Assembly: GCA_028717685.1 (NCBI GenBank)
Contig: JAQUNI010000001.1
Location: forward strand, 54,306-118,305
Origin: Patescibacteria group bacterium
GTDB lineage: Bacteria > Patescibacteriota > JAQUNI01
Reading direction: 5' to 3'
Length of the DNA: 64,000 nucleotides
Shown here: positions 2,403 through 63,989 of the stretch, piece by piece
Position numbering within the stretch: the first letter of the stretch is position 1
Layout: each line of letters opens with the position of its first letter
Notes under the pieces: generated by a model
What the model was told of the DNA's origin: nothing
Database searches by the model: none
The model's input: the letters and a program-made list of their open reading frames with translations, nothing else
Program-made: the position numbers and the translations under genes

Positions 2403-2439
2403 GGGAATGGGGAATTAAGAATTAGGAATCAGGAATAAG
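2403..2439. repeat. tandem heptamer array (gggaatg gggaatt aagaatt aggaatc aggaata)
   Basis: Period-7 purine-rich array in the dnaX/gtrA spacer. It uses the same word family as 32563-32696 and 47000-47642. No complementary partner lies nearby. Confidence 0.6.
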
Positions 2440-2440
2440 A

Positions 2441-2923
2441 TTACGAATTACTTATATTTTTGCTTGCTTCTTTTTTATTAAACACAAAAAATTTATAGCC
2501 AATAAAATTCCAGATTAAAGAAACCGCGGTAGCCACAACCTTGACCGCGTTCGCCCATAATCCGACCGAGAGCCCGAAATGCGCGCTTACCACGGTAGTG
2601 CCCAAATAAACAATCGAACTGTTAATCCCCATTCCTATAATTGTCACAAAGATAAACTGGGCATATTGAAAAACTGCCCGCTCCTCTCCTTTATATTTGA
2701 AGGCCCACAGGCGATTCCAAAAGAAACTGTTCGTGGAAGCAATCGCGAAAGAGATCGCATTAAAAACGAAAACCGGCCAGCCGCGGTAAATACTAAAAAC
2801 CCACATCTCTAAATTTAAAATCCCGAAGTCAATCGCCGTGTTTATAAAGCCGACAACCACAAAACGCAAGAATTGACCAATAATGGGATACTTTTGCAAA
2901 AGATTTTTATTTTCTGGACCCAT
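2441..2923 (-). CDS. GtrA-family membrane protein
   Basis: 160 aa with four predicted TM helices. N-terminal RFVVVGFINTAIDFGILN is typical of GtrA-like proteins. Confidence 0.8.
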   Translation of the reverse strand: MGPENKNLLQKYPIIGQFLRFVVVGFINTAIDFGILNLEMWVFSIYRGWPVFVFNAISFAIASTNSFFWNRLWAFKYKGEERAVFQYAQFIFVTIIGMGINSSIVYLGTTVVSAHFGLSVGLWANAVKVVATAVSLIWNFIGYKFFVFNKKEASKNISNS

Positions 2924-3025
2924 AATTTTGTTTTATCTGATTAAAATTAAACAATTTTATTTTAACAAAAAAAAGAGAATCCAGCAATTAAAAAGATTCT
3001 TCGTTTCTGAAATTACGAAATAGGC

Positions 3026-3049
3026 AGAGACGCAAGATTTTGCGTCTCT
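3026..3049 (-). terminator. stem-loop immediately after ORF 3051-3746 (AGAGACGCAA family)
   Basis: Perfect 10-bp stem agagacgcaa / ttgcgtctct with loop gatt, starting 1 nt after the stop codon. The downstream U-tract is only moderate (gcctatttcg). Confidence 0.5.
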
Positions 3050-3050
3050 A

Positions 3051-3746
3051 CTACTCCTCATCTACCAATCCTTCCAAACCTTCCAGCTCGCTGTCCAAGT
3101 CATCCACAATCTGACCGGGAACGACTTCTTTCTCTACCTCGGCAGAAGGCACAGCATTCTCATTTCCCCTTTTTTCTACCATATCTTTCAAACTCGTTTT
3201 CTTGATAATATTCTCCACCGCGCCCCATTCGGATTCGCCTTGAGCGGGAATAACCAATGTTACCTCATCACCAGCTTCGCCTTTAAAATAAGTGACGCTC
3301 GCTAATAAAACTTTGTAGGATTTGTTTTCAACAATTACCTGATACTCCCCTTTATCATCCTGGGAAAGCACGCCTAACACCTTTTTACGCTCCACGGGCC
3401 CAATTTGTTTGTAAATAAAAGAACCGTCCTCGGTAATGGTAAGTTTAAGGGTATCACCCTGAATAATCTTGGATTTAGAGGCATAATTGGCAGGCACGGG
3501 GTATTCTGTGTCGTCCGGCGCGACCATACTCTGACCATTGAAAATTCCCTGAATAATCCGCGTTTTTCCCACAGAAGAGGCTAACTCTTGAGCCTTTTCT
3601 ATAATTTGTTTTTTACTGATTTTTGGCTTGGAGCTTTCCACATCTCCCCCCAAAAATTCAGTCAGAACCTTTTTAGCCTGGGAAAGATTGGACTCCGCTT
3701 GCTCTAATATTTCACGAATTAAAGCGATTTTTTCTAAATCTGCCAT
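3051..3746 (-). CDS. hypothetical protein (N-terminal coiled coil, acidic C-terminus)
   Basis: 231-aa ORF with coding-like composition, followed by a stem-loop. No motif recognised. Confidence 0.6.
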   Translation of the reverse strand: MADLEKIALIREILEQAESNLSQAKKVLTEFLGGDVESSKPKISKKQIIEKAQELASSVGKTRIIQGIFNGQSMVAPDDTEYPVPANYASKSKIIQGDTLKLTITEDGSFIYKQIGPVERKKVLGVLSQDDKGEYQVIVENKSYKVLLASVTYFKGEAGDEVTLVIPAQGESEWGAVENIIKKTSLKDMVEKRGNENAVPSAEVEKEVVPGQIVDDLDSELEGLEGLVDEE

Positions 3747-3873
3747 TTTTTTGCAATTTCTCTTTTATTTTATTTTTGGAGAAATTACCTGTTAATTTTT
3801 AGTTTTTGTTTTTGCGACTTTTTGATAAAAATAATATAGCAAAAAAAAGGGGAAAGGTCAATGATTTGCATTT

Positions 3874-3922
3874 GACCCCACTAGAGAAACATGCCCCACA
3901 CGAATTTCTAACGGGGTTGACC
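3874..3922. repeat. CCCCGTTAGAGAA-type palindromic element (imperfect copy)
   Basis: gaccccactagagaaa...tttctaacggggttgacc. The arms ccccactagagaaa and tttctaacgggg are near-complementary. Confidence 0.6.
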
Positions 3923-3999
3923 TTCCAGAAATAAAGTTTTATAATTAATTTAACAGCACGAAACTTGCCTGTACTTTTTGAAGTTAAGACGAATAATGT

Positions 4000-4027
4000 C
4001 CTCCTTCGTTCTAGCGAACTACGGAGG
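4000..4027 (+). promoter_or_regulatory. possible SD-sequestering hairpin upstream of corA
   Basis: cctcc (4000-4004) can pair with ggagg (4023-4027), which is the SD 8 nt upstream of the corA ATG at 4036. An inner stem ttcg/cgaa lies between them. Confidence 0.3.
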
Positions 4028-5789: not shown

Positions 5790-5889
5790 AATAAAAGGCC
5801 CTTTTTTTTATCAATTTAATGAGGTAAAATAGGAGAAGGAATGAAATTATTCTACCTTGAATTACGAAATTCATTTGTCTATTAGCAGG

Positions 5890-5964
5890 CTATTCTCCCT
5901 CCCCCTCCAACTCCCCCTCGGGCAGGGGGAGTGTAATCAAGCTTATCGCTAATAGACGATACAT
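5890..5964. repeat. C-tract/G-tract hairpin repeat, copy A (also at 26135-26209)
   Basis: ctattctccctccccctcc..ctccccctcgggcagggggagtgtaatcaagct is shared almost exactly with 26135-26209. It contains the stem ctccccc/gggggag. Upstream, 5853-5880 also resembles 26048-26075. Confidence 0.8.
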
Positions 5965-5992
5965 TTTAGAATAATTAGAAATTTACAAATTT

Positions 5993-8657: not shown

Positions 8658-9704
8658 ATGTCTAATTTTTGGCAAAAACTTCCCAAACCCTTTATTTGTC
8701 TGGCTCCCCTGGCAGGGATCTCTGACTCCCCTTTTCGCCAAATCTGCAAGGAATTTGGCGCGGATGCGGTTTTTACCGAAATGATCTCCGCTGAAGGACT
8801 TAGCCGCGAGCAAAATAAAACTCTAGAACTTACTTATTTTTCTCAAAAAGAACGACCCATTATTTTGCAACTCTTTGGTAAAAATCCAGAGAGTTTTGGG
8901 CGCGCCGCGCAAGTGATTCAAAATTTATCGCCTAGGAAAAAACCAGATGGCGTTGATTTAAATCTAGGCTGTCCGGCGCGCAAGGTAAAAACTCACGGTT
9001 CGGGAATCGCTTTGATGCGCGATCCCGATCTTGTTAATAAAATTATCGCCGCAATCACCGCGAACACCGATCTGCCGCTCTCCATTAAAATCCGCGCGGG
9101 AATTAGGAAAGAAGGGATTAAAGCGGCGAGTTTCGCCTCAAAAATCAACTGGCAAAAACTAGCCGCCATTATTGTCCACGGCCGTTATCTAGAACAAGGA
9201 TTTTCCGGACCCATTGATTATACGGAAATTAAAAAAATCAAAATGATTGTGGGCGATAAAACCGTGATTGGAAATGGAGGGATTAATGGCTTAAGAAGCG
9301 CCCAAATAATGTTTAAAAAAACAGATGTTGATGGCATAATGATTGGCAAGGGAGCTTTGGGGAGACCGTGGATTTTTGAAAAAATTAAAAAAGCCTTAAA
9401 AAGAAAGACTCCCCCCTTCCTCCCGGAGGTCAAGGGAGAAATAAATACTCCCCCTCTTGATAAAGAAGGGGAAAGAGAGAGGGTCTTCGCCCCTTTATTG
9501 CCAAACACAATAAAAACCGCCCTCAAGCACGCGAGATTGATGATTGAACTCAATGGCGAGGGAAAGGGAATACGGGAAATGCGGAAACACCTTTTGTGGT
9601 ATTTCCGCGATTTTGAGGGCGCTAAAGGAATAAGAAAAAAACTTACTAAAATTGAAACATTTAGAGATTTGGAGGACACTCTCCTTTATCTTTCCAGCAA
9701 TTAG
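8658..9704 (+). CDS. dus: tRNA-dihydrouridine synthase
   Basis: 348 aa. LAPLAGISDSPFR, DLNLGCP, GNGGI and GRPWIF are typical of the Dus family. It carries an extra Pro/Glu-rich segment encoded by a repeat-like sequence at about 9406-9487. Confidence 0.9.
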   Translation: MSNFWQKLPKPFICLAPLAGISDSPFRQICKEFGADAVFTEMISAEGLSREQNKTLELTYFSQKERPIILQLFGKNPESFGRAAQVIQNLSPRKKPDGVDLNLGCPARKVKTHGSGIALMRDPDLVNKIIAAITANTDLPLSIKIRAGIRKEGIKAASFASKINWQKLAAIIVHGRYLEQGFSGPIDYTEIKKIKMIVGDKTVIGNGGINGLRSAQIMFKKTDVDGIMIGKGALGRPWIFEKIKKALKRKTPPFLPEVKGEINTPPLDKEGERERVFAPLLPNTIKTALKHARLMIELNGEGKGIREMRKHLLWYFRDFEGAKGIRKKLTKIETFRDLEDTLLYLSSN

Positions 9705-11328: not shown

Positions 11329-11610
11329 ATGTTTGACTCTCTTAAAAATCTCAACCAATTAAGGCAACAAGCTAAAAAAATCAAAAAAGAATTAGGTAAA
11401 GAAATCTTGATCGGCACCGCGGAAGATGGCAAAATTCAAATCACGATGGACGGCAACCAAGAGGTGAAGGCTGTGCGCGTAGAACCGGATTTGCTTACTT
11501 CCGAAAACAAGGAAAAAATTGAAAAAGGCATCAAAGAAGCGATTACCCAATGCATTACCCAAATGCAAATGGCGATGGCAAGGAAGATGCAGAATGGAGG
11601 AATGTTTTAA
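11329..11610 (+). CDS. ybaB: YbaB/EbfC family nucleoid-associated protein
   Basis: 93 aa. The LKNLNQLRQQAKKIKKEL ... DGKIQITMDGNQEVKAVRVEPDLL pattern fits, as does the conserved position upstream of recR. Confidence 0.85.
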   Translation: MFDSLKNLNQLRQQAKKIKKELGKEILIGTAEDGKIQITMDGNQEVKAVRVEPDLLTSENKEKIEKGIKEAITQCITQMQMAMARKMQNGGMF

Positions 11611-11739
11611 GTTAAAAGTTAAAAGTGCAAAGTGAAAAGTTGAATTTAAAGTTTAAAGTTTCTTTTGTAAAAGCAGCTGCTCCGCAATAATTTTGTACTT
11701 TAAACCGCAATTTTGAACTTTGAATTTTTAACTTTGAAC
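11611..11739. repeat. heptamer-array hairpin (gttaaaa/gtgaaaa words)
   Basis: Left array 11611-11659 (gttaaaa gttaaaa gtgcaaa gtgaaaa ...). Right array 11697-11739 is its imperfect reverse complement, about 26/32 over the outer part. The loop of about 37 nt contains gcagctgc. Confidence 0.7.
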
Positions 11740-11746
11740 TAATTTT

Positions 11747-12352
11747 ATGTCTCTTCTTCCCCAATCCATAAAAGATTTAATAGACGAATTTGCCAAGCTG
11801 CCCGGCATCGGTCCTAAGACCGCGGCTAGGCTTACTTTTTATTTATTAAAACAGCCGGATCAAGAACTGGAACGTTTTGGCGAAACCTTGCAAAATCTAA
11901 AGCAGAAAATCAACCTCTGCCCCACTTGCTTTACATTAGTTCAAAATAACTTCTGTCCTTTTTGCGATAATGTTAACCGCGATTCTGATCTAATCTGCAT
12001 AGTGGAAGAACCTTTGGATATTATTGCCCTGGAAAAAACCAAAGAATACCGCGGGCTTTACCATGTCCTCCACGGCATCATTTCACCGATGGATGGAATC
12101 GGACCCGAACACCTAAAAATCCCCGAGCTAATCTCCCGCATTAAAAAAAATAAACCCAAGGAGATTATCATCGCGACCAATCCCTCTCTTGAGGGAGAGG
12201 CAACGGCGATGTATTTACAACGGATTTTAAAAGATTTCAAGATCAAGCTTACTCGCCTTGGACGGGGATTGCCCACAGGCGGCGAATTGGAATATGCGGA
12301 TGAAATTACCCTAGTGAACGCTCTGCAAGGGCGGAGAGAAATAAAGCTGTAA
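11747..12352 (+). CDS. recR: recombination protein RecR
   Basis: 201 aa. HhH N-terminus LPGIGPKTAARL, C4 zinc finger CPTCFTLVQNNFCPFC, and Toprim ATNPSLEGEATA. Confidence 0.95.
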   Translation: MSLLPQSIKDLIDEFAKLPGIGPKTAARLTFYLLKQPDQELERFGETLQNLKQKINLCPTCFTLVQNNFCPFCDNVNRDSDLICIVEEPLDIIALEKTKEYRGLYHVLHGIISPMDGIGPEHLKIPELISRIKKNKPKEIIIATNPSLEGEATAMYLQRILKDFKIKLTRLGRGLPTGGELEYADEITLVNALQGRREIKL

Positions 12353-12407: not shown

Positions 12408-12448
12408 CTATAGAGACAGGTTTAAAATTTGTCTCTATAGTTTTTTTT
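12408..12448 (+). terminator. Rho-independent terminator after recR
   Basis: Perfect 11-bp stem ctatagagaca / tgtctctatag with an 11-nt loop, followed by eight T (12441-12448). Confidence 0.85.
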
Positions 12449-12453
12449 ATTTA

Positions 12454-12492
12454 CCCCGTTAGATTCGGTTTAGAAATATATTTCTAAACGGG
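12454..12492. repeat. CCCCGTTAGAGAA-type palindromic element
   Basis: ccccgttagattcgg tttagaaatatatttctaaa cggg. The inner 20-nt stretch is a perfect palindrome (12469-12488). Confidence 0.7.
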
Positions 12493-14037: not shown

Positions 14038-14041
14038 TGAA

Positions 14042-14142
14042 AAAAATTAAAAATGAAAAGTGAAAAATGTAAAATTAAATTGAAAACAATTTTTTCATTT
14101 TAGATTGTGATTTTTAATTTTTCATTTTATATTTTACGTTTT
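14042..14142. repeat. heptamer-array hairpin (atgaaaa/gtgaaaa/gtaaaat words)
   Basis: An A-rich array (attaaaa atgaaaa gtgaaaa atgtaaa ...) is followed by a T-rich complementary array (ttttcat, attttac ...). The pairing register is ambiguous because of low complexity. Confidence 0.55.
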
Positions 14143-15735: not shown

Positions 15736-15759
15736 AAAAAAAATGTAAAATTAAAAATG

Positions 15760-15795
15760 AAAAATGTAAAATAACATTTGAGATTTTACATTTTT
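15760..15795. repeat. perfect AT-rich hairpin (aaaaatgtaaaat / attttacattttt)
   Basis: 13-bp perfect stem (15760-15772 with 15783-15795) and a 10-nt loop. It uses the same words as 14042-14142, and its right arm overlaps the stop codon of ORF 15794-16207. Confidence 0.75.
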
Positions 15796-16207: not shown

Positions 16208-16374
16208 CTTGCTATAACTATATCTAAAAAAGCCTTAAAAGTAAACCCCGTTAGAGAATTTTGTCGTCCTTCGGTTCTTTGAGCTGAGCTCAAAATTATA
16301 TCCCTACTGTTCATAAATTAGATTGCTAAAATGTGGAATATTTTCTATAATAAATACGAAGTGACATCAGTAAA

Positions 16375-16405
16375 CCCCATTAGGGAACGAAGCTTTCTAG
16401 CAGGG
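16375..16405. repeat. CCCCGTTAGAGAA-type palindromic element (degenerate)
   Basis: ccccattagggaa cgaag ctttctagcaggg, flanked by gtaaa / gtaaa. A half site gtaaaccccgttagagaa lies at 16241-16258. Confidence 0.5.
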
Positions 16406-18019: not shown

Positions 18020-18064
18020 TTTTTTTACTATTTATCAAAATTTAATAATTTTCCCTGCGAAAAA

Positions 18065-48130: not shown

Positions 48131-48132
48131 TG

Positions 48133-48246: not shown

Positions 48247-48261
48247 AATCCAAAATTATTA

Positions 48262-48364: not shown

Positions 48365-48631
48365 CTATAATGATCGATAAACGATGCGGCCGAGGGAAAG
48401 ATCATAAGGACTTAATTCCACGCGAACCCTGTCACCCGGCATAATCCGAATCTTGTTCAGCCGCATTTTACCGGAGAGATGTGCTAAAATCTCATGGCCG
48501 TTTTCCAGTTTCACCTTAAAGGTCGTAGATGGCAAAACTTCGGAAACTTTCCCCTCCATTTCAATTACATCTTTTCTGGACATCCTGCCGGAAAACACAG
48601 GATTATTTTTAGTCTTCTTGAACTTAATCAT
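48365..48631 (-). CDS. infA: translation initiation factor IF-1
   Basis: 88 aa with an S1-like core [35 protein letters not shown]. It has an N-terminal extension of about 18 aa if the first ATG is used. Confidence 0.9.
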
Positions 48632-48738
48632 AGGAAATAAAACCCCTTGAAAATCTTACTTAATGTAACATAAAATACTAAAAAAAACAAGGATTTCTGC
48701 TAAACCCGATTTACCCTGCGTGATAAACCCCGTTAGAT

Positions 48739-48764
48739 CCCGTTAGAAATATATTTCTAACGGG
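48739..48764. repeat. CCCGTTAGAAATA perfect palindrome
   Basis: cccgttagaaata|tatttctaacggg is a 26-nt perfect palindrome, preceded by a partial duplicate aaccccgttagatc. Confidence 0.85.
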
Positions 48765-48931
48765 GCCACGCGTAGTTTAAAAACCACGCTCAAGGTGTTT
48801 TTATATTATATAACCAAAGACACTAAAGAAGCAATACCTCCCAAAGAAATATGACGAAATCCTTATCTCGCGGAGACAAATGCCTTTTAAATATTCTAAC
48901 ATTACAACTTCTTAAATTTACCAACTATTCT

Positions 48932-50686: not shown

Positions 50687-50736
50687 AATAATAAACTCAA
50701 AGCTCAAATGTCAAAACTCAAAACTACAGGTCAAAA
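50687..50736. repeat. tandem heptamer array (aaactca aagctca aatgtca aaactca aaactac aggtcaa)
   Basis: Period-7 array filling the spacer between ORF 50737-51096 and ORF 48932-50686. Confidence 0.65.
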
Positions 50737-51096
50737 CTAAAAATTTTTCTTTTTATATTTTTTTAAAAGTTGATTTAATATTTTCAATAAAGGTTTTCGC
50801 CAATCATCTTCTAACTGAGATTTGATGAGTTGCACTAATATCTTATCTCCTGAAGTCAGATGCAATTTTTCCAACTTTTTACATTGAGCTAAAATTTCAA
50901 AATCAATATCGGTGGCTAAAACATATTTGCTTTTCTCTAATGGGGTTAACTGAAACTGCTTTGTCAATCTCTGTTTTCTTCTTTGAAGTAATTCCTGATA
51001 ATGCCTATCTTCTTTTAAAACTTTTCTTAATTTATATCCCTGATATCCTAGATTCAGATAAAAATCTTCAATCGCTTGCATTGATTTCTCTTGCAT
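50737..51096 (-). CDS. hypothetical helical protein
   Basis: 119 aa, predicted all-alpha by composition. It is bracketed by heptamer arrays (50687-50736 and 51097-51118). No family motif recognised. Confidence 0.55.
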   Translation of the reverse strand: MQEKSMQAIEDFYLNLGYQGYKLRKVLKEDRHYQELLQRRKQRLTKQFQLTPLEKSKYVLATDIDFEILAQCKKLEKLHLTSGDKILVQLIKSQLEDDWRKPLLKILNQLLKKYKKKNF

Positions 51097-51118
51097 AACT
51101 TTTAACTTTTAACTTATC
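51097..51118. repeat. tandem heptamer array (aactttt aactttt aacttat)
   Basis: It fills the 22-nt spacer between the ftsA stop and the ORF 50737-51096 start. Confidence 0.65.
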
Positions 51119-52381
51119 TCATGTTTGCATCATCCTCACCACGCGCCTTAAAATGCCGCCCATCGCCCCTTCCTCGCCAGCTAAATCCAGAGCCAAGTTT
51201 GCGAGCGCCATTGGCGTCACATCTTGAGTCTGGGTGAGTTTCCCGGTTTGATCCACAATATTTACCACTTCCTCCGGTTTAATAAAACTTACTTGCGGCA
51301 GTTTGGCAAAAGCTAAATCTTCTGACCAGCGAGGATTCACAATACTCGCTTTGATTTCCGGCAAGAGAGAGCCGCCGCCGCAAAGCAGAATCCGCGAAGG
51401 CAATAAATCAGATTCAGTAAACTCTGATAAAGCGAGTTCCAAACCCGACATCCAGACTCGCGTATCGCCGGCCAAAACTTCTTTAACGCGATTGAGCTCT
51501 CTTATATCTAACTGACCTAAGGAATATTTGATTTTTAATTCCTCTGCCTCGGGCAATCCTATCCCTAATTCTTGAGAGATTCTTTTGGTAAAAGCGCGTC
51601 CGCCGAGGGCGAACATTTTGGTCCCCTCCACACCTCCATTGCGCACGACCGCGATATCCGTCGTCCCGCCGCCTACATCAAGAAAAATAGCGGAAAATTC
51701 CGGCGCGTCTTCAAGCCCCAAGGAACGCGCCACGGCGTAAGGCTCGGCGGCGATAGAGAGTAAATCTAAATCTAATTCCGCGGCAATAGTCTGAAGCGCG
51801 CCCAAGTGCACTAAAGGGGCGTAAGCATTGAAGATGCCAATAGAGACATCTTTGCCTTGAAAACCCAAAGGATTAGTCACCCTGTAGCCATCAATCCTGA
51901 CATCCACAATCGCCGCGTTAATCAATTTCACGTCAATCTCCGCGTGCCCTGTTTCCCAAGCAAGCTGCTTCCTTACTTTATCAAAAGCTTTCCATTGCAC
52001 CTTATGCAGAATATTCTTTAATTCCGGCATATCAATCTTGGTTTTAGGCTTCAATCTTTCATAATGCACGGTCGTTGTGGACCCTTTAACAAGTTCGCCA
52101 GCAATACCCAAAATAACCTGCGTGGGGCGAAAACCCACTTCCTTCTCCGCTTCCCGGATCGCTTTCTCGCAGGTAGTGACGACGCCGGCAATATCCGTCA
52201 CCGCGCCTGATTGCATGTCGCCGAAAGCCTGATTCGCGCGACCCACTCCACCAACATAACCTTTACCCTCTTTAGAATCTACCTTGAAAATCAAAGCCTT
52301 TACTACCGCTGTCCCGATATCCAAAGCAAGAGCGTAATGGTTCTTTTCCTTTCTTTTTTTTAATCTTGCCAATAATCCCAT
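51119..52381 (-). CDS. ftsA: cell division protein FtsA (actin-like ATPase)
   Basis: The start is taken at Met13 of ORF 51119-52417 (MGLLARLKK). ALDIGTAVVKA, DVGGGTTDIAV, and a C-terminal amphipathic tail GGILRRVVRMM. Confidence 0.8.
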   Translation of the reverse strand: MGLLARLKKRKEKNHYALALDIGTAVVKALIFKVDSKEGKGYVGGVGRANQAFGDMQSGAVTDIAGVVTTCEKAIREAEKEVGFRPTQVILGIAGELVKGSTTTVHYERLKPKTKIDMPELKNILHKVQWKAFDKVRKQLAWETGHAEIDVKLINAAIVDVRIDGYRVTNPLGFQGKDVSIGIFNAYAPLVHLGALQTIAAELDLDLLSIAAEPYAVARSLGLEDAPEFSAIFLDVGGGTTDIAVVRNGGVEGTKMFALGGRAFTKRISQELGIGLPEAEELKIKYSLGQLDIRELNRVKEVLAGDTRVWMSGLELALSEFTESDLLPSRILLCGGGSLLPEIKASIVNPRWSEDLAFAKLPQVSFIKPEEVVNIVDQTGKLTQTQDVTPMALANLALDLAGEEGAMGGILRRVVRMMQT

Positions 52382-57312: not shown

Positions 57313-59061
57313 ATGAAGGACAAATTAAAAAACGATACAGTCAATTCCAACGGGGTGAAATTTGACGACAAAACAATAAAGAAGATTCTCTTAAAAGGGA
57401 ACTATATTACTGAAGAAGATGTTAAGAACGCGGATGATTTTGCCACAACGCACCAAGTGTCATTCATAGGGTATCTGCTCCAAGAAAATCTCATCACCAA
57501 GGACCTCTTGGGGCAGGCGATTGCCGAATCGTTCAAGGTTCCCTACGCTGACTTAAATTCAGCACCACCCGCACCTCTGCAGGTGCAAAAAATTCCGGAG
57601 GAGACCGCGAAAAAATATCACGCGGTTATTTTCGCTGAAGAAAAAAACAAAACCGTAGTCGCCACCGATAATCCAGAAGATCCAACACTCCTGCCGGAAT
57701 TAGAAAAGCTGTTTGTCGGCAGGAGGTTGAGCATTGTCTATTCGCTGACCGAGGACATCAACGCGAGCTTTGTGCATTATCAAAAGCCGCTTGAAACCCG
57801 CTTCTCTAAGATTATTGAGAGCAAAGGGCGAGTCGCGCCAGAGCTTTTGGAAGAAATTTTTGATGACGCGCTCGTATATCATGCCTCCGACATCCATTTT
57901 GAACCCAGGCAGAAAGATGTGCTTGTGCGGTTTCGCATTGACGGCGTTTTACAAGAAACCGGCAGGATCCCCAAAGAATATTACGAAAATATTCTTAATC
58001 GCATCAAGGTGCAAAGCGGTTTGCGCATTGATGAACACTTTGCCGCGCAAGACGGTTCGCTCCGGTATGAACCCTCCTCCTTTAAAGCTTCCTCCTACGC
58101 TAACGCTCCAGCGGGCAAAAAGGATAGCGTTGTTGTTGACCTTAGAACCTCAGTTGTCCCCACTGTTGAAGGAGAAAAAGTGGCATTGCGCGTACTCTCG
58201 GCATATGTGCAAGGATTTTCTCTTGGTGATCTTGGTCTTTCGCCGGCACATCAGCAGATACTTGAGCAAGCCGCCACAAAACCATTTGGCATGATTCTCG
58301 TAGCAGGTCCCACTGGTTCCGGAAAAACCACTACGCTTTACGCACTTTTGAAACTTGTAAATAGCCCAGAGGTGAACATCACCACTATTGAGGACCCGGT
58401 GGAGTACAGGGTGCTCGGCGTGAATCAAATTCAAATCAATCCTCTAACAAATCTCACTTTTGCCAAAGGACTGCGTTCTATCGTCCGCCAAGACCCGGAT
58501 ATTATTCTGGTCGGCGAGATTCGCGACGAAGAAACAGCAGAAATCGCCGTAAATGCGGCACTCACCGGCCATCTTCTCTACTCCACATTTCACGCCAACG
58601 ATGCCGCTACCGCCATTCCTCGGCTTCTGGATATGGGCATTGAACCGTTTCTTTTGGCTTCCACGCTTGAGGTTATTGTCGCCCAGCGACTCGTGCGTAA
58701 AATTTGCGAACATTGCCGGCATAGTGTTACCAAATCGGCAAATGATTGGAAGACGCCTCAGCTTCGGTCAGTTATGCCATATCTTTCCAAAAAGTCGATC
58801 ACGCTCTATGAAGGGAAGAAGTGCGAGATGTGCGGCTATACGGGGTACAAAGGACGAACTGCTATTTTTGAATTCATCCAAATCACTCCGGAGATGCGGA
58901 ATCTCATCTTACACTCCCCGTCAACTAAAGAAATCTGGCAACTCGCCAGTAAGGATGGTTCAAAAACACTTTTTGAAGACGGCATTGAAAAAGTTAAGAC
59001 TGGAGTAACCACAATAGAAGAGCTGCTTCGCGTCGCCGAACCGCCGCAGAAGAGTGGGTAG
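57313..59061 (+). CDS. pilB: type IV pilus assembly ATPase (GspE/PilB family)
   Basis: 582 aa. Walker A GPTGSGKTT, Walker B DPDIILVGEIRD, His box TGHLLYSTFH, and a tetracysteine CEHC...CEMC. Confidence 0.9.
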   Translation: MKDKLKNDTVNSNGVKFDDKTIKKILLKGNYITEEDVKNADDFATTHQVSFIGYLLQENLITKDLLGQAIAESFKVPYADLNSAPPAPLQVQKIPEETAKKYHAVIFAEEKNKTVVATDNPEDPTLLPELEKLFVGRRLSIVYSLTEDINASFVHYQKPLETRFSKIIESKGRVAPELLEEIFDDALVYHASDIHFEPRQKDVLVRFRIDGVLQETGRIPKEYYENILNRIKVQSGLRIDEHFAAQDGSLRYEPSSFKASSYANAPAGKKDSVVVDLRTSVVPTVEGEKVALRVLSAYVQGFSLGDLGLSPAHQQILEQAATKPFGMILVAGPTGSGKTTTLYALLKLVNSPEVNITTIEDPVEYRVLGVNQIQINPLTNLTFAKGLRSIVRQDPDIILVGEIRDEETAEIAVNAALTGHLLYSTFHANDAATAIPRLLDMGIEPFLLASTLEVIVAQRLVRKICEHCRHSVTKSANDWKTPQLRSVMPYLSKKSITLYEGKKCEMCGYTGYKGRTAIFEFIQITPEMRNLILHSPSTKEIWQLASKDGSKTLFEDGIEKVKTGVTTIEELLRVAEPPQKSG

Positions 59062-59498
59062 TAGGATTAGTTGGTAGTTTGTAGTGAGTAGTTAGTAGTA
59101 AATATGAAAATTGAATCGTACGAAAATTTAATTGTGTGGCAAAAGTCAATGGATCTGGTGATTGCTGTTTATGCATTGACAGAAAAATTTCCAAAAGAAG
59201 AACTATACGGTTTAACTTCACAAATGCGCCGCGCAACTGTTTCAGTTCCTTCCAATATTGCGGAAGGTAGTAGGCGTGGTTCTCGAAAAAATTTTAGAAA
59301 TTTTTTACTCAATGCGTATGGTTCCAGTGCAGAGCTTGGGACTCAGATCAAAATCGCGAAACGGCTTTCATACGGAAAAACCAAAAATTATGAGCAAGCG
59401 GATGCACTGCTTGATGAAGTAATGCGCATGTTAGACAAATTGACGTATGGGCTCAAAGAATAAAAGTCTACAAACTACCAACTACAAACTACAAACTA
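59059..59498 (+). mobile_element. hairpin-loop four-helix-bundle cassette (IVS-like), copy 2
   Basis: 59068-59084 tagttggtagtttgtag is the exact reverse complement of 59468-59484 ctacaaactaccaacta (17 bp). ORF 59104-59463 fills the loop. Confidence 0.65.
59104..59463 (+). CDS. four-helix-bundle protein (23S rRNA intervening-sequence protein / Avd-like family)
   Basis: 119 aa. YENLIVWQKSMDL, FPKEELYGLTSQMRRATVSVPSNIAEG. It differs from ORF 61765-62124 at 10 of 119 residues. Confidence 0.9.
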   Translation: MKIESYENLIVWQKSMDLVIAVYALTEKFPKEELYGLTSQMRRATVSVPSNIAEGSRRGSRKNFRNFLLNAYGSSAELGTQIKIAKRLSYGKTKNYEQADALLDEVMRMLDKLTYGLKE

Positions 59499-60886
59499 TC
59501 TTCCTAGGCAAAGAACGGGACTATTTTATTGAGAATTTAAGCATGCTGGTCGCCGCTGGCATGCCGATTTTGGGCGTTCTCGACTCCATTGCCAAAGAAC
59601 TGCGCTCGCGCCGCATGAAAAAAATTCTTGCTCTTATTCGGGAATATATTGAATCTGGCTCGCCAATTTGGAAAGCGCTTCAAACAACTAACCTGTTTGC
59701 CGACCACACTATCTCGCTTATCCGCCTTGGCGAAGAATCGGGAAAGCTTACGGAGAACTTAAAAGTGGTCGCGAATGAACAAGAAAAAAATCGGGTGTTC
59801 CACTCCAAGCTTCGTTCCGCCATAATGTATCCTGTATTCGTACTCTCACTCACGGTCATTATCGGTGTGGGCATTGCGTGGTTTATTTTGCCCAAGCTGG
59901 CGCTGGTGTTTGCCCAGCTTAAAATAACCTTGCCCCTTATCACAAAAATTTTGATCGGATCGGGAACATTTCTTGGCGAATATGGCCAATACGTCGTGCC
60001 CGCGGCAGTTATAGCAATATCAGTTATTTTTTTCTTTATTTTCTCATTTCCAAAAACAAAATTTATCGGGCAATTTATTTTATTTTCTTTGCCCGGCGTT
60101 AAACAACTTATTAAGGAAGTGGAGCTGGCGCGGCTCGGTTATCTTTTAGGCACGCTTCTTGACGCTGGACTGCCGGTAACCCAAGCGCTCAACTCGCTCG
60201 CAAGCGCTACCGAGATTGCGCCATACAAAAAACTCTACAAACACCTGCGCGACTCGGTAGAAGACGGCAATCCGTTCCGGAAAAGCTTTATTTCCTTTAA
60301 GCGCACTAATCATCTTATTCCCGAACCTATTCAGCAACTCATCGTCGCTGGTGAACAGTCAGGCACTCTTTCAGCAACTCTTCTTAAAATCGGAGAGACT
60401 TATGAAGCTAAAGCGGACACGACGACAAAAAATTTGACCGTGATTCTGGAGCCGATATTACTCGTCATCGTGTGGCTCGGCGTTGTAGCCGTGGCGTTAG
60501 CAGTGATTTTGCCAATCTACAGCCTTATCGGCGGATTTAACGCCAACCAGCCCGCAGCGGCACAGCCTCCTCCTGCCGAAGAACAGGTAATCAGTCCGCC
60601 GCCAAGTGTGGAAACAACAGCTCCAGATACAGAAACCGTGGAAGTAATACCCCCTCCGGATACAGAAATCATAGAGAAAAAACCAACAACGCTCCGCGTT
60701 CTTCCCACTAGCGTAGGGTATCTTAACGTGCGCGAGAAACCATCATTAACAAGTAAAATCGTCACGCGCGTTAAGCCGGGTGAAACATTTGAATACACTG
60801 AAAAAAACGAGAGCTGGTATAAAATTATTTTGCCGGATGGCAATTCCGGATGGGTGTTTGAAAAATATGTTGAAGAAAATGAATAA
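59447..60886 (+). CDS. pilC: type IV pilus platform protein (GspF/PilC family) with C-terminal Pro-rich linker and SH3b-like domain
   Basis: 479 aa. Two T2SSF-type repeats (FIENLSMLVAAGMPILGVL and LGYLLGTLLDAGLPVTQAL) and three TM helices. The C-terminal YLNVREKPS...SWYKIILPDGNSGWVFEKYV is SH3_3-like. The ATG lies 17 nt inside the preceding ORF. Confidence 0.85.
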   Translation: MGSKNKSLQTTNYKLQTIFLGKERDYFIENLSMLVAAGMPILGVLDSIAKELRSRRMKKILALIREYIESGSPIWKALQTTNLFADHTISLIRLGEESGKLTENLKVVANEQEKNRVFHSKLRSAIMYPVFVLSLTVIIGVGIAWFILPKLALVFAQLKITLPLITKILIGSGTFLGEYGQYVVPAAVIAISVIFFFIFSFPKTKFIGQFILFSLPGVKQLIKEVELARLGYLLGTLLDAGLPVTQALNSLASATEIAPYKKLYKHLRDSVEDGNPFRKSFISFKRTNHLIPEPIQQLIVAGEQSGTLSATLLKIGETYEAKADTTTKNLTVILEPILLVIVWLGVVAVALAVILPIYSLIGGFNANQPAAAQPPPAEEQVISPPPSVETTAPDTETVEVIPPPDTEIIEKKPTTLRVLPTSVGYLNVREKPSLTSKIVTRVKPGETFEYTEKNESWYKIILPDGNSGWVFEKYVEENE

Positions 60887-60892: not shown

Positions 60893-60998
60893 CTAACAAA
60901 TGACACATAACATCTGACACATGACATTTGACACATATGAAACAAAAAAAATTATAGGAAAATAAAAGGGCATCGTCAGATGTTAGGTATCAGATGTT
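60893..60998. repeat. heptamer-array hairpin (ctgacac/atgacat words)
   Basis: The left array is ctaacaa atgacac ataacat ctgacac atgacat ttgacac. 60909-60932 pairs with 60975-60998 at about 19/24 positions. Confidence 0.65.
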
Positions 60999-61013
60999 CC
61001 AAAAGGGTTTACC

Positions 61014-61309
61014 CAGCACCACTTTTTAGATTATAAACATGTATTACGTCTATACCTTAATTAGTAAGTTAAAAAATAAGACAGAAATATATATTGGATC
61101 AACAAATGATCTGAGAAGAAGACTAAGAGATCATAATAATGGTAAAGAAAGATCTACAAAACGTTATAGGACGTGGAATCTGATTTACTACGAAGCATAT
61201 ATAACAGAGAGTCTAGCAAGATTAAGAGAAAAACGATTGAAACATCACGGAAATGCGATGAAAGAATTAAAAAAAAGAATCGGATTATCCGAATGGAAAA
61301 GTGGTGCTG
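61014..61309 (+). mobile_element. GIY-YIG nuclease-carrying element with 13-bp terminal inverted repeats and 8-9-bp flanking direct repeat
   Basis: 61014-61026 cagcaccactttt is the exact reverse complement of 61297-61309 aaaagtggtgctg. ggtttacc lies immediately outside both ends (61006-61013 and 61310-61317). Confidence 0.6.
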
Positions 61310-61731
61310 GGTTTACCTTGCTGGAAGTTCTTCTCTCTATCGCGGCGATCGCGATTATCGCCGTAATTTCTATTCCCATTTATCAGTCGTTTCAGGTGCG
61401 AAACGATCTTGATATCGCGACCATGGAAATTGCCCAAACTTTGCGGCGCGCGCAAGTACTTTCCCAAGCGGTTGATGGCGACACAAGCTGGGGCGTTTCT
61501 CTCGCAAGCGGAAATATCACGCTTTTTAAGGGCGTAAGTTACGCCACCCGCGATACCAATTTTGATGAAGTGTTTGATGTATCAACAAATATCACTCCAT
61601 CGGGACCTTCCGAAATCGTGTTTGTAAAATTTACAGGCTTACCACAGACCACGGGGACAATAATGCTATCCTCCAATATGAATGAAACGAGAAATATAGT
61701 AATTAACCAGAAGGGAATGGTTAATTATTAG
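61039..61731 (+). CDS. GIY-YIG nuclease domain fused in frame to a type IV pseudopilin (GspH/FimT-like)
   Basis: 230 aa with no internal stop. Residues 1-85 read YYVYTL..IYIGSTNDLRRRLRDHNNG..YYEAY..REKRLK (GIY-YIG). Then comes KSGAG|FTLLEVLLSIAAIAIIAV (class III signal with E5). An internal Met74 lies at 61258. Confidence 0.8.
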   Translation: MYYVYTLISKLKNKTEIYIGSTNDLRRRLRDHNNGKERSTKRYRTWNLIYYEAYITESLARLREKRLKHHGNAMKELKKRIGLSEWKSGAGFTLLEVLLSIAAIAIIAVISIPIYQSFQVRNDLDIATMEIAQTLRRAQVLSQAVDGDTSWGVSLASGNITLFKGVSYATRDTNFDEVFDVSTNITPSGPSEIVFVKFTGLPQTTGTIMLSSNMNETRNIVINQKGMVNY

Positions 61732-62158
61732 TTGGTAGTTTGTAGTGGGTAGTTGGTAGTAAATATGAAAATTGAATCATACGAAAATTTAATTGTGTGG
61801 CAAAAGTCAATGGATTTAGTGATTGCTGTTTATGCATTGACAGGAAAATTTCCAAAAGCAGAACTATACGGTTTAACTTCACAAATGCGCCGCGCGGCTG
61901 TTTCAATTCCTTCCAATATCGCGGAGGGGAGCAGGCGCGGTTCTCGGAAGGATTTTAGAAATTTTTTACTCAATGCGTATGGTTCTGGTGCAGAGCTTGA
62001 AACTCAAGTTAAAATTGCGAAACGACTTTCATACGGAAAAACCAAAGATTATGAGCAGGCGGACGCGCTGCTCGATGAAGTAATGCGCATGTTAAACAAA
62101 TTGACGTATGGGCTCAAAGAATAAAAATCTACCCACTACAAACTACAAACTACCCACT
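61729..62158 (+). mobile_element. hairpin-loop four-helix-bundle cassette (IVS-like), copy 3
   Basis: 61735-61752 gtagtttgtagtgggtag is the exact reverse complement of 62129-62146 ctacccactacaaactac (18 bp). ORF 61765-62124 fills the loop. Confidence 0.65.
61765..62124 (+). CDS. four-helix-bundle protein (23S rRNA intervening-sequence protein / Avd-like family)
   Basis: The start is taken at the ATG homologous to 59104 (MKIESYENL). The ORF track begins at a TTG (61753) inside the hairpin arm. Confidence 0.9.
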   Translation: MKIESYENLIVWQKSMDLVIAVYALTGKFPKAELYGLTSQMRRAAVSIPSNIAEGSRRGSRKDFRNFLLNAYGSGAELETQVKIAKRLSYGKTKDYEQADALLDEVMRMLNKLTYGLKE

Positions 62159-62746
62159 CAACAAGGCTTCAGCCTTGTTGAAGTTATTCTCGCCAGCGCG
62201 GTGTTTGTTTTGTTCGTTACCGCGCTTGTCGGAGCGTACCTCTATGGGCAGGAGTCAACCGCGCTTGCCGGCAATCGCGCGCGCGCGACGATTCTTGCCG
62301 AAGAAGGGCTTGAGGCAGTGCGCAATATCCGCGATGCCGGATTTTCTAATCTCACCGACGGCACCTACGGATTGGCTGTTGTCGGCAACCAATGGGCGTT
62401 ATTCGGAACATCAGACACAACGGGTATTTTTACCCGCCAAATTACAATTTCCGCTGTAGATTCAGAACGAAAAAGCGTGACTGCGAATGTCGCTTGGCAA
62501 CAAAATGCCCAGCGCCCGGGAGCAGTTGCCCTGACGACCTATCTTACTAACTGGAAAAAGGCGACTCCTGTCAATTCCTGCGATATTTACTGCCAGTTGT
62601 TGGGAACCTATACCACTGGTACCTGTCGGGAAAATTCCCAACAATGTACTAAGTATGACGAGATTTATGAGGCGGGCGGTGATCCTATTTGTGTGACTAG
62701 TTTTCCTGGCGACGCCAGCCATGATACTTGTTGCTGCAAACCATAA
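62108..62746 (+). CDS. type IV pseudopilin with cysteine-rich C-terminal domain
   Basis: MGSKNKNLPTTNYKLPTQQG|FSLVEVILASAVFVLFV is a class III signal with E5. There are 8 Cys in the last 57 residues. The ATG lies 17 nt inside the preceding ORF. Confidence 0.75.
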   Translation: MGSKNKNLPTTNYKLPTQQGFSLVEVILASAVFVLFVTALVGAYLYGQESTALAGNRARATILAEEGLEAVRNIRDAGFSNLTDGTYGLAVVGNQWALFGTSDTTGIFTRQITISAVDSERKSVTANVAWQQNAQRPGAVALTTYLTNWKKATPVNSCDIYCQLLGTYTTGTCRENSQQCTKYDEIYEAGGDPICVTSFPGDASHDTCCCKP

Positions 62747-62755
62747 TTTAGGGAT

Positions 62756-62814
62756 TAGTTTGTAGTGAGTAGTTGGTAGGTTGTAGTTTTCTACTCACTA
62801 CTCACTACAAACTA
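62756..62814. repeat. unoccupied heptamer hairpin between pseudopilin genes
   Basis: 62756-62772 tagtttgtagtgagtag is the exact reverse complement of 62798-62814 ctactcactacaaacta (17 bp). The 25-nt loop contains a small gtag tttt ctac stem. Confidence 0.8.
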
Positions 62815-62823
62815 CAAACTAAC

Positions 62824-63348
62824 ATGCTACCAACTACAAACTACCAACTACAAACCCAGCGTGGCTTCACGCTAATTGAACTGCTTCTCTATGTTGCCGT
62901 TGCGTCGGCGATACTTTTGGCGATTTCGGTTTTTCTTTCAATCCTCCTTCAGTCGCGCATCAAAAATCAAACTATCGCTGAAGTGGAACAGCAGGGGCTT
63001 CAAGTTATGCAACTCGTTACGCAAACCGCGCGCAACGCCGAGGCAATCACCTCGCCAGCGCAGGGCGCAAGCGCTTCATCTTTGACGCTTGACGTTATTT
63101 CTGCTGCCAGTGACCCCACTATTTTTGATCTCGCAAGCGGCGCGATTCGCGTCAAAGAAGGGGCTGGTTCAGCTACCGCTCTTACTAATTCTCGCGTTAC
63201 CGCTTCCGCTCTCACATTCCAAAATCTCTCTCGCACCGACACTCCGGGCACGGTTCGCGTCCAATTCACCCTCGCACATACAAATCCAGAAGGCAGAAAT
63301 GAATACTCATTTACTAAAACATTTATCGGCTCTGCGAGCCTGCGCTAG
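62824..63348 (+). CDS. type IV pseudopilin (GspJ/PulJ-like)
   Basis: The start is taken at the ATG giving MLPTTNYQLQTQRG|FTLIELLLYVAVASAILL. The ORF track begins at a TTG (62773) inside the hairpin. Confidence 0.75.
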   Translation: MLPTTNYQLQTQRGFTLIELLLYVAVASAILLAISVFLSILLQSRIKNQTIAEVEQQGLQVMQLVTQTARNAEAITSPAQGASASSLTLDVISAASDPTIFDLASGAIRVKEGAGSATALTNSRVTASALTFQNLSRTDTPGTVRVQFTLAHTNPEGRNEYSFTKTFIGSASLR

Positions 63349-63370
63349 TCATAATGCGGCAAATGCCGCA

Positions 63371-63477
63371 ACGACTGACACTTGATACCTAGCACCTGAC
63401 AACTGACCACTAACATCTAACATTTTGTTAGGTGTCAGATGCCAAATGTCAGGTGTTAGGTGCTAGGTGTCAAGTGT
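63371..63477. repeat. long heptamer-array hairpin (ctgacac ttgatac ctagcac ctgacaa ctgacca ctaacat)
   Basis: The outer stem 63376-63395 acacttgatacctagcacct pairs with 63458-63477 aggtgctaggtgtcaagtgt at 19/20. The inner arms are imperfect, with loop tttt near 63423-63426. Confidence 0.75.
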
Positions 63478-63507
63478 TAATTGTATAGAACCAGGTTATT
63501 CACACTC

Positions 63508-63927
63508 ATGATTATTTTAAAATATAAAAAGTGTTATAATAAACAGGAGGATGGGTTCATTACCCTAATAAGTGTCTTGGTGGTTGGAGCGGTTGGAATA
63601 GCCCTCACAATTTCCGTGATTTTGCTCGGGCTTGGGTCGTCGCGAACAAGTTTTACGAATGAGCAGTCAAACCAAGCGAAAGCCCTCACTAACGCCTGTG
63701 CCGAAGAAGCTCTTCAGCAAATTCGTGATTCTGTGAATTTTGAAGGTACCGGTAGCCTTACTTTAGGTCTGGGCAGCTGCACCTATACCGTGACCAAACT
63801 TGTTAGCCAGAACCGAACCGTCACCGCCAGCGGGACAGTGGGAACAATCATAAGAAAAGCAAGTATTGCTCTTGATACAATCAGACCGAGCATCAACATC
63901 ACTTCCTGGCAAGAGGTGGCTGATTAG
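63508..63927 (+). CDS. PilX/minor-pilin-like protein
   Basis: The start is taken at the first ATG, giving MIILKYKKCYNKQEDG|FITLISVLVVGAVGIALTISVILLG. It has a hydrophobic N-terminal helix but no Glu at +5. The ORF track begins at TTG 63481. Confidence 0.55.
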   Translation: MIILKYKKCYNKQEDGFITLISVLVVGAVGIALTISVILLGLGSSRTSFTNEQSNQAKALTNACAEEALQQIRDSVNFEGTGSLTLGLGSCTYTVTKLVSQNRTVTASGTVGTIIRKASIALDTIRPSINITSWQEVAD

Positions 63928-63989
63928 TTAGTAGTTTGTAGTGAGTAGTGAATAAAAAACTACCAACTAACACGCTACCAACTACAAGC
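63925..63989. repeat. heptamer arrays of the pilus-locus family at the window end
   Basis: tagttagtagtttgtagtgagtagtg is followed by actaccaactaacacgctaccaactacaagc. The words match 59059-62857 but complementarity is degenerate. The next gene lies beyond the window. Confidence 0.5.

Follow-up and report, generated by a model that had tools for sequence, protein, structure and literature searches.

The intergenic spacers of a 64,000-nt stretch of DNA from a Patescibacteria group bacterium (contig JAQUNI010000001.1, positions 54,306 to 118,305; hereafter the ‘window’) carry tandem arrays of 7-nt words, mostly paired as complementary, inverted arms, and three of the resulting hairpins enclose a gene for a four-helix-bundle protein of the PF05635/TIGR02436 family. 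We would call it an even chance that these spacers hold heptamer-armed inverted-repeat elements resembling the intervening sequences (IVSs) of bacterial 23S rRNA, a minority of which carry a four-helix-bundle open reading frame (ORF), with the ORF-less majority as their relatives or derivatives. The window has a G+C content of ~42%, is 13% intergenic, and takes in ftsA, an infA-rpsM-rpsK-rpsD-rpoA-rplQ-rplM-rpsI block, proS (family I, TIGR00408), mreB-mreC and a pilB-pilC-pilin cluster.

The intergenic DNA of the window totals 8,526 nt, and base identity within it stands at 0.349 at a lag of 7 nt, against 0.282±0.005 in dinucleotide-shuffled controls (z=14.4), with harmonics at lags of 14 (z=9.4) and 21 nt (z=4.8); the coding DNA of the window has no lag-7 peak. 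At a threshold of at least 16 matches in 21, we detect 35 heptamer arrays, 31 of which are intergenic, whilst three of the other four fall in doubtful, over-extended 5′ ends of ORFs. The claim of an earlier note on this DNA, that the spacers contain tandem 7-nt arrays, is therefore borne out; Tandem Repeats Finder (TRF), which maps period-7 arrays of 2.6-8.6 copies at ~35 sites, recovers essentially all of the arrays given there, and places its single 8-nt array at 40412-40445. At least ten distinct word families, mostly A/T-rich and clustered locally, occur within the 64 kb, and every related locus likewise shows period 7 (z of 5.4-9.4), as against 0.0 and -1.2 in loci from Saccharibacteria and Calditerrivibrio. 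The spacers of the window have no palindrome consensus in common. Repeats of this sort resemble those of cyanobacteria, but we reject a cyanobacterial source: HIP1 shows no enrichment, the genes present and their arrangement (ftsA, rpsM-rpsK-rpsD and a family-I ProRS) are not those expected of cyanobacteria, the closest genome is from a ‘Candidatus Doudnabacteria’ member, and S11 and PilB match proteins of a ‘Patescibacteria group bacterium’ contig at 100% identity.

Folding of the 52 spacers of 40-330 nt, with minimum free energies (MFE) compared to those of shuffled sequences, addresses the pairing of the arms. Arrays are found in 18 of these spacers (about a third), 14 of which fold with z of -1.9 or lower, the best being the spacer at 63349-63480 (-74.5 kcal/mol, z=-11.6). 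Arms are thus generally paired, as had been proposed, but several arrays are single arms, and the loops range from ~1 to ~70 nt rather than the 25-60 nt first described. The array at 35366-35470 makes a good hairpin but is weakly tandem, and those at 50687-50736 and 51097-51118 (AAACTCA and AACTTTT), previously offered as a complementary pair, do not pair (z=-0.2). Arrays do lie within operons, at the rpsM-rpsK-rpsD and mreB-mreC spacers, as well as beside ftsA.

Each of the three four-helix-bundle genes sits inside complementary heptamer arms (z=8.6-9.2), and the best relative of their products in the PDB is 2GSC. The components of the three cassettes are as follows.

435-465, − strand: 3′ arm of the gene 3 hairpin, ATTCGTA/CTTCGTA in the sense of the gene; overlaps the stop codon of the gene, with tRNA-Gln next
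446-829, − strand: four-helix-bundle gene 3, PF05635-like; 127 aa, with 42% identity to the copy at 59104
838-878, − strand: 5′ arm of gene 3, CGAATCA/CGAATTA x5; complementary to 435-465, z=8.6
59061-59109, + strand: 5′ arm TAGTTGG/TAGTTTG/TAGTGAG, in the gap between pilB and gene 1; complementary to 59463-59503
59104-59463, + strand: four-helix-bundle gene 1; 119 aa, PF05635 (E=8e-39) and TIGR02436
59463-59503, + strand: 3′ arm CTACAAA/CTACCAA, in the gap between gene 1 and pilC; pairs with 59061-59109, z=9.2
61725-61762, + strand: 5′ arm of gene 2, TAGTTGG...; pairs with 62126-62163
61753-62124, + strand: four-helix-bundle gene 2; near-identical to gene 1, with 92% amino-acid identity in the alignment
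62126-62163, + strand: 3′ arm of gene 2, CTACCCA/CTACAAA; lies within the 5′ end of a pilin-like ORF, z=8.7

The earlier note had suspected four-helix-bundle proteins in three hairpins, and three are indeed confirmed, although the ORF at 50737-51096 is not one of them: it matches no family and its flanking arrays are those that fail to pair. The gene at 446-829 lies just outside the portion that the note covered (2403-63989). Genes 1 and 2 have the same TAGTNNG/CNNACTA arms, and ORF-less hairpins of that family stand in the same pil cluster; in two relatives (L091 and L092) pilB is followed directly by pilC, without gene 1. Alignment of 59104-59460 with 12 homologues reveals an invariant polar motif, GLTSQ-RRA-VS-PSNIAEG (GLTSQxRRAAVSVPSNIAEG), along with invariant positions W12, F29-P30, E33, S74 and E77; on this conservation, the motif suggests a specific binding or catalytic site. 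None of the elements is inserted into a 23S rRNA helix, as they lie between protein genes or beside tRNA-Gln, in a window that has no rRNA, and no target-site duplication was seen at the borders of the gene 1 and gene 2 cassettes.

The cassette of gene 3 is wedged between a protein gene and tRNA-Gln(UUG) (364-436, − strand), the latter beginning 5 nt past the heptamer arm that ends the gene. At 62108-62165 and 62824-62865, the 3′ arms (CTACAAA/CTACCAA) are apparently translated as leaders of pilin-like proteins, e.g. MLPTTNYQLQTQR|GFTLIEL, with the pilin-like ORF that starts at 62108 beginning within the 3′ end of gene 2. As for the ORF at 50737-51096 (− strand), it encodes 119 aa between ftsA and the next gene, is flanked by its two non-complementary arrays, has no Pfam or NCBIfam match, and is absent from this position in both of the more distant relatives that we compared across the ftsA-to-rpsI block (L004 and L007).

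The link between heptamers and the four-helix-bundle gene is strongly supported as an association, and extends far beyond this genome. Among 71 usable metagenome loci, whose homologues are 46-63% identical and whose G+C content spans 33-68%, inverted repeats flank the gene (z>3) in 43, and the density of heptamer arrays over the 150 nt next to either gene end is 20 times that in the rest of these loci. The result is replicated on viral contigs, where 21 of 32 loci have flanking inverted repeats; these loci were found by an alignment-based search, a search of the viral contigs with the single protein of 446-829 giving no matches. Words differ widely across the metagenome loci, with word similarity following protein similarity; a YAGK core is found in 27 of 39 upstream units (7.4 expected), and CAGT in 12 (1.2 expected). 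The cassettes are also polar, in that 37 loci have the G-rich arm upstream of the gene and four have it downstream; co-oriented neighbours predominate by 49:7 upstream and 42:15 downstream, at median gaps of 45 and 59 nt. Where cassettes are related, their similarity is limited to the gene and its arms, the contexts being unrelated, and one cassette is inverted between two loci (L081 and L084) relative to homologous flanks. Where the 71 loci hold other arrays, these tend to have the same word and to occur as inverted pairs without an ORF.

Among 72,556 plasmids, homologues are almost entirely cyanobacterial, and mostly from the heterocystous lineages known for short tandemly repeated repetitive (STRR) sequences. 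On plasmid pNPUN01 of Nostoc punctiforme, the order is (TCAGGAG)n, gene, (CTCCTGA)n (z=15); on pANA02 of Anabaena sp. 90, the gene is flanked by inverted (GGTGACA)n/(TGTCACC)n arrays, and it lies there between cas6 and cas4 of a CRISPR-Cas locus (L248, NC_019429.1 43692-45233). Published data hold similar juxtapositions. A repeat table for Xanthomonas lists a GGGAATC array that overlaps the start of XCC0516 (PMC4692102 supplement), and XCC0516 is the PF05635 protein of PDB 2GSC. In the 23S rRNA IVS of Coxiella, two to three GACAGAT heptamers, their number varying between strains, precede the S23p ORF, and RNase III cleaves in the stem at the first heptamer (PMC4990558). We found no literature report generalising the association of PF05635 with heptamers, in a search that was incomplete, such that an earlier description is possible; we provisionally regard the association as new.

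From these observations we propose that each element would comprise two inverted tandem arrays of one 7-nt word, akin to the S23p-bearing IVSs of 23S rRNA. Across phyla, the cassette runs from a G-rich (YAGKNNN)n array, through the ORF, to the complementary array; such cassettes are polar and invertible, lie in the sense orientation between the genes of operons, in unrelated genomic contexts, and, judging from this comparative context, are probably mobile. The ORF-less hairpins may then be relatives or derivatives of the cassettes, or at least share their mode of origin. We suggest that arrays grow via replication slippage in a 7-nt register, and that complementarity of the arms might be upheld by intra-element recombination or template switching, rather than by selection on each individual RNA. 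Because they lie inside operons, the elements would be transcribed as long imperfect stems and, by analogy with the Coxiella IVS, these are probably cut by RNase III. The elements would in essence be tolerated, largely selfish or neutral passengers, which may uncouple cistrons but would not act as gene-specific regulators.

The remaining arrays and hairpins of the window, several of which figure in the comparisons below, are listed here; z values refer to folding.

2399-2450, − strand: single array, ATTCCTG/ATTCCTA in gene sense; fills the 43-nt spacer before the gene at 874-2397, partner arm not found
11602-11741, + strand: hairpin spacer between a ybaB-like gene and the gene at 11747-12352; AAGTTAA at 11602-11661 and AACTTTG at 11708-11741; z=-4.6
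14039-14142, − strand: hairpin spacer with AAAATGN and NCATTTT arms; z=-1.9, paralogue of 15738-15793
15738-15793, − strand: short hairpin spacer with a 13-bp stem, of the word family of 14039-14142; z=-3.9
18060-18180, + strand: hairpin spacer with TTTTCAA/TTTCTAA and TTGAAAA/TTAGAAA arms; z=-4.1
19932-20086, no strand assigned: hairpin spacer between convergent genes, of the family of 18060-18180; z=-4.5
27767-27897, − strand: element with a conserved ~65-nt core and one arm of GTAATNA; complementarity lost in the window, z=0.0
31413-31523, − strand: mreB-mreC hairpin spacer; AAAGCGT/AAAGTGT arm and its complement
32560-32700, − strand: proS-mreB hairpin spacer; GGAATNA and TNATTCC arms, core paralogous to that of 27767-27897
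35357-35480, − strand: hairpin spacer with CTAATGT/ACATTAG words; z=-5.2, weakly tandem
40250-40445, − strand: arrays in the 501-nt spacer before an MreB-like gene; (ACGTTTT)n at the start codon, GAATTAA x3, and the 8-nt TTGTTGCA x4
44698-44825, − strand: rplQ-rplM spacer; folds as a hairpin and includes heptamer words in partial form
46996-47099, − strand: rpsK-rpsD hairpin with GGAATCA and TGATTCC arms; paralogue of the rpsM-rpsK element
47562-47640, − strand: rpsM-rpsK hairpin, of the same family as the rpsK-rpsD hairpin
48031-48129, − strand: hairpin directly 5′ of rpsM; arms are of GAATTAC and of ATAATTC, z=-4.5
50693-50743, − strand: TTTTGAG array (gene sense), lying downstream of ORF 50737-51096; does not pair with 51095-51124
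51095-51124, − strand: array of AAGTTAA x3 in the gap between ftsA and ORF 50737-51096, mapped by TRF
60896-61000, + strand: hairpin spacer 5′ of an ORF joining GIY-YIG and pilin domains; CTGACAC/ACATCTG arms, complement GTCAGATG; z=-3.3
62756-62857, + strand: ORF-less hairpin of the TAGTNNG/CNNACTA family; its 3′ arm holds an ATG (62824) and encodes a pilin-like leader
63371-63484, + strand: strongest hairpin of the window, with CTGACAC-type and GTGTCAG-type arms; -74.5 kcal/mol, z=-11.6
63921-63985, + strand: ORF-less hairpin of the TAGT family; z=-4.5

The MreB-like gene at 39235-40245 (− strand) is preceded by a near-consensus sigma-70-like promoter at 40328-40357 (TTGACT-18-TATAAT, with an extended TG). 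The (ACGTTTT)n array sits downstream of this promoter-like site, abutting the start of the gene, and would therefore lie in the 5′ untranslated region if the prediction holds.

Comparison with relatives shows how these spacers turn over. The nearest is a ‘Candidatus Doudnabacteria’ locus (L001) from a metagenome-assembled genome (MAG), with an MreC that is 95% identical to that of the window. Whilst its genes are 91.5-94.6% identical, the heptamer spacers are 52-67% identical, and the changes are unit-wide and arm-wide. In the mreB-mreC spacer, both arms have switched together, being of the GTAAAGC type in the window and AAAACTC/GAGTTTT in L001; at 27767-27897, every unit of one arm reads GTAAT in the window as against GGAAT in L001, which has kept its GGAATNA/TNATTCC arms and pairs with z=-5.5. 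The rpsK-rpsD hairpin has words of the GGAATCA family in the window, GTAAAGC words in L004 and TTTTTAA/GAAAATT words in L007 and, more generally, the distant relatives (S11 ~72-89% identical) have hairpins in the same spacers of the ftsA-to-rpsI block, made from wholly different word families. The contention of the earlier note, that period and structure are maintained over sequence, is upheld to this extent; but some orthologous spacers are hairpin-free, namely rpoA-rplQ (12 nt), rplQ-rplM (9 nt) and rplM-rpsI (5 nt) in L004, and rpsM-rpsK in L007 (29 nt, as against 127 nt in L004).

Some elements are plainly paralogous: 46995-47102 and 47562-47640 share 84% identity along 68 nt that take in the loop, and the arms of 18020-18181 and 19934-20083, which lie either side of one gene, are 94-97% identical. 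The ~65-nt cores of 27767-27897 and 32560-32700 are inverted with respect to L001, their flanks being unmoved, and match it as the reverse complement only (59/64 and 42/53 identical). Such flips between close relatives are direct evidence of recombination between the inverted arms, and this recombination would homogenise the arms and so keep them complementary without selection. Concerted evolution at the level of DNA explains why structure is kept and sequence is not, with no RNA role being necessary for it; an RNA function of the hairpins is nevertheless possible. The core (…CTCACTCCTTTTCAAAAATTTCGTAATTTGTAGGACTCC…) occurs in two hairpin elements per genome, at 8787-8808 and 13631-13652 in L001,; within either genome the pair is oriented alike, but each copy in the window is reversed relative to its counterpart in L001. 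This could reflect two independent events or one coordinated inversion.

A number of observations weigh against our proposal of IVS-like, heptamer-armed elements. No four-helix-bundle gene is present in 120 viral-contig loci with (CAGTNNN)5 arrays, of which 88 of 382 form inverted pairs; the gene is therefore not needed in cis, and a common origin of gene-free and gene-bearing arrays is unproven. In the window itself, the gene is found in three of ~20 hairpins, and the many word families have no shared YAGK core (8 of 31 arrays, against 5.3 expected). We found no transposase, target-site duplication or other mobility machinery for either the cassettes or the empty hairpins, and no transposase-like protein among the window ORFs examined, which do not amount to all of them. 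Three further assemblies of one relative (L004-L006), 99.95% identical among themselves, have no differences in array copy number, implying that slippage is not rapid. The recurrence of hairpins at the same spacers in relatives equally fits selection for a stem-loop, and the loci compared share phylogeny and are not independent. These same data dispose of some related ideas: that an array predicts a four-helix-bundle gene nearby (the 120 gene-free loci), that a YAGK core is universal to the window's arrays (no significant excess), and that the arrays are hypervariable contingency loci (constant copy number in the three assemblies).

An RNA-level role, as put forward in the earlier note, does not follow from what we find. 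In its fuller form, whereby the hairpins would be selected cis-acting elements of operon transcripts, acting in processing, stability or translational coupling, with the heptamer repetition merely making stems tolerant of register shifts, we think it rather unlikely. Hairpins do lie within operons, with one arm stopping 5-15 nt short of the start codon, and the purine-rich arm is 5′ in the mRNA at most co-directional spacers; relatives hold hairpins in the same spacers despite having different words, RNase III acts on the analogous stem of the IVS (PMC4990558), and the Xanthomonas repeats are mostly transcribed (PMC4692102). Selection on RNA should, however, favour G·U over A·C mispairs on the sense strand, and the arms have 44 of the former and 47 of the latter, i.e. 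no wobble bias. The loss of complementarity at 27767-27897 (z=0.0), the hairpin-free orthologous spacers and the flipping of cores all speak against it, as does the finding that spacers without heptamers fold equally well. Nor are terminator-like features or an Rfam family in evidence: the heptamer hairpins of 30000-49500 are all unlike an intrinsic terminator (a short, G+C-rich stem with a U-tract), and tRNA-Gln is the sole match in the window to Rfam 15 at gathering score. It had also been remarked that the arm ends where a Shine-Dalgarno (SD) sequence would sit, and indeed none of the 17 genes with upstream heptamers has an SD-like motif; but only 8 of the 49 genes without them do, which leaves the point with little weight. 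As the genome is SD-poor throughout, an arm abutting a start codon does not imply replacement of the SD, and the comparison is uninformative on that idea.

At the other extreme, the arrays might be mutational by-products of 7-nt polymerase slippage, with neither function nor link to any gene, and with incidental pairing. Heptamers are the commonest long simple-sequence repeat (LSSR) in many bacteria, for which a polymerase footprint has been proposed (Mrazek 2007, as cited in PMC4679880), and the arrays are dispensable and variable among relatives. Slippage on its own, however, cannot produce a complementary array 1-70 nt away, as is seen in 14 of 18 spacers, and it leaves the paralogous loops, the 20-fold excess of arrays around the ends of four-helix-bundle genes and the restriction to certain lineages without explanation; this account is already disfavoured, and we hold it to be quite improbable. 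That the arrays are artefacts of assembly or binning comes to mind, given that the source sequence is a MAG, but an independent Logan assembly (L009) is identical across 12 kb, the assemblies L004-L006 hold equivalent arrays, and the arrays respect gene boundaries exactly; we see next to no likelihood of it.

A further possibility, which is compatible with our IVS-like reading, is that a protein which recognises a 7-nt periodicity in RNA or DNA, be it the pentameric four-helix-bundle protein or a ribosome-associated factor, binds at the arrays and controls translation or transcription of the adjacent gene. Members of the gene family lie within arrays in different phyla, at a fixed polarity and with YAGK as a common core, and the protein has the strongly conserved polar motif described above. 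Its relative Avd binds both nucleic acid and reverse transcriptase. Homology of Avd to the four-helix-bundle family has been noted (PMC10053308), and papers on Beggiatoaceae and Nostoc likewise postulate a heptamer-binding partner. Set against this, the window has at least ten unrelated word families to two four-helix-bundle types, most of its units lack YAGK, arrays on viral contigs occur gene-free, and the S23p of Coxiella is apparently not made in vivo, as excision removes the AG-rich SD-like region (PMC4990558). On balance, we regard a regulatory reader of this kind as unlikely. A related and more general idea, tentative and somewhat on the doubtful side, is that PF05635/TIGR02436 proteins (S23p, Avd-like pentamers) are the missing partner of bacterial intergenic heptamer repeats, within a mobile, invertible cassette. 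The protein would then putatively bind, or help to propagate, 7-nt periodic hairpins, and the ORF-less hairpins of the Candidate Phyla Radiation (CPR), cyanobacteria (STRR), Xanthomonas, Beggiatoaceae and Geobacter would be non-autonomous relatives. If true, this would join two orphan observations: the ‘prime-number periodicity’ seen in the intergenic DNA of prokaryotes, and the widespread PF05635 family, for which structures have been solved.

Intergenic tandem heptamers are a recognised, widespread and unexplained class (PMC6344855), and the closest parallels to the window are instructive. The GGGAATC repeats of Xanthomonas campestris and X. axonopodis are intergenic tandem heptamers of ~4 units, with ~185 per genome, and include 70-75 convergent inverted pairs able to form stem-loops; their position is conserved between species, with length and sequence variable, and they are mostly transcribed (PMC4692102). 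Pairs of this type are found in 14 of 18 array-bearing spacers in the window. However, Xanthomonas has one G-rich family per genome, which was read as G-quadruplex-forming, and the PF05635 link went unnoticed (PMC4692102), whereas the window has at least ten mostly A/T-rich families, for most of which a G-quadruplex is impossible. In Geobacter metallireducens, multicopy sets of 4-5 tandem heptanucleotides (GGACCGG, MTYCTGA), some in strand-switching pairs, have been annotated as putative global regulatory sites (PMC2700814); these differ in having GC-rich words and some sites inside genes, and no comparative or protein link. In marine Beggiatoaceae, TAACTGA repeats are intergenic and end a few nt from start codons, including those of ribosomal-protein operons (MacGregor 2015, PMC4679880), and a translational role and binding protein were proposed (PMC4679880); there, though, one word occurs almost always as direct repeats (one inverted case in 170 sets), as opposed to the many, mostly inverted, words seen here.

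The STRRs of cyanobacteria (Calothrix, Nostoc/Anabaena) are alike in being highly repeated intergenic heptamers, often beside start codons. Two of their words, CCCCAGT and CAACAGT, contain a CAGT core, which is also found around four-helix-bundle genes. They differ in having few dominant words per genome and a host from another phylum, and the Nostoc G-rich family has few reported inverted pairs, unlike the window. With respect to the LSSR/STRR class as a whole, the arrays of the window are tandem (at least three copies) and non-coding, but have many words in place of one or a few dominant ones.

Among other elements, the 23S rRNA IVSs of Coxiella, Leptospira and others share terminal inverted repeats, a long stem and a four-helix-bundle ORF in the loop; they have long been suspected of being selfish or mobile, and RNase III has been shown to excise the stem-loop from the transcript in Coxiella and others (PMC4990558). 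They differ in their location within rRNA helices, the cassettes of the window being at pilB-pilC, between pilin-like genes and beside a tRNA, and most of its hairpins being ORF-less. Repetitive extragenic palindromes (REP/REPIN) and MITEs (miniature inverted-repeat transposable elements) are comparable as short, abundant, intergenic hairpin repeats, often in operons, paralogous and variable among relatives. Unlike REP/REPIN, though, the elements here have tandem 7-nt arms and no single consensus palindrome, with no RAYT seen among the ORFs examined; as for MITEs, inverted arms and unrelated contexts are present, but an insertion sequence (IS) transposase and target-site duplications were not seen. 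What is new in the window is the CPR host, the many A/T-rich families, mostly hairpin-paired, and IVS-type cassettes in protein operons. The phenomenon is thereby extended to a reduced CPR genome, where it occupies a large share of scarce non-coding DNA and, with its many words and paired hairpins, is extreme in form; the association with a gene family makes what was a descriptive puzzle amenable to experiment. From this association, 23S rRNA IVSs would seem to be one habitat of a much broader class of element.

Repeats of several types occupy the spacers of this genome, which are dynamic. Besides the heptamers there is a family of palindromes, richer in G+C and based on CCCCGTTAG…CTAACGGGG, with 23 matches at up to one mismatch (8.9 expected) and sites at 34188-34258, 36057-36170, 48720-48770, 12440-12470, 16240-16390 and 3908; at least one copy, that at 34188-34258, is missing from the orthologous spacer of L001. 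Other G+C-rich intergenic repeats or hairpins lie at 26069-26322 (compared with 5790-5992), 22470-22639 and 29824-29950; among these, one 67-nt segment is shared at 92.5%, and there are large indels relative to L001.

Two genes of the pil cluster also merit comment. The PilB gene (57313-59061, + strand) encodes 582 aa, compared to ~551 aa in its closest relatives (97% query coverage), which may reflect a lineage-specific terminal extension or a mis-called start. The ORF at 61039-61731 (+ strand) joins a GIY-YIG nuclease domain, which makes up residues 1-75, in frame to a type IV pilin-like protein, the domain ending just ahead of the pilin G|FTLLEV processing motif (region 61003-61320). A direct repeat, GGGTTTACC (the codons for G-F-T), and an inverted pair, CAGCACCAC/GTGGTGCTG, border the insert; from these borders, it looks like a selfish insertion with a target-site duplication, one that now replaces the prepilin leader.

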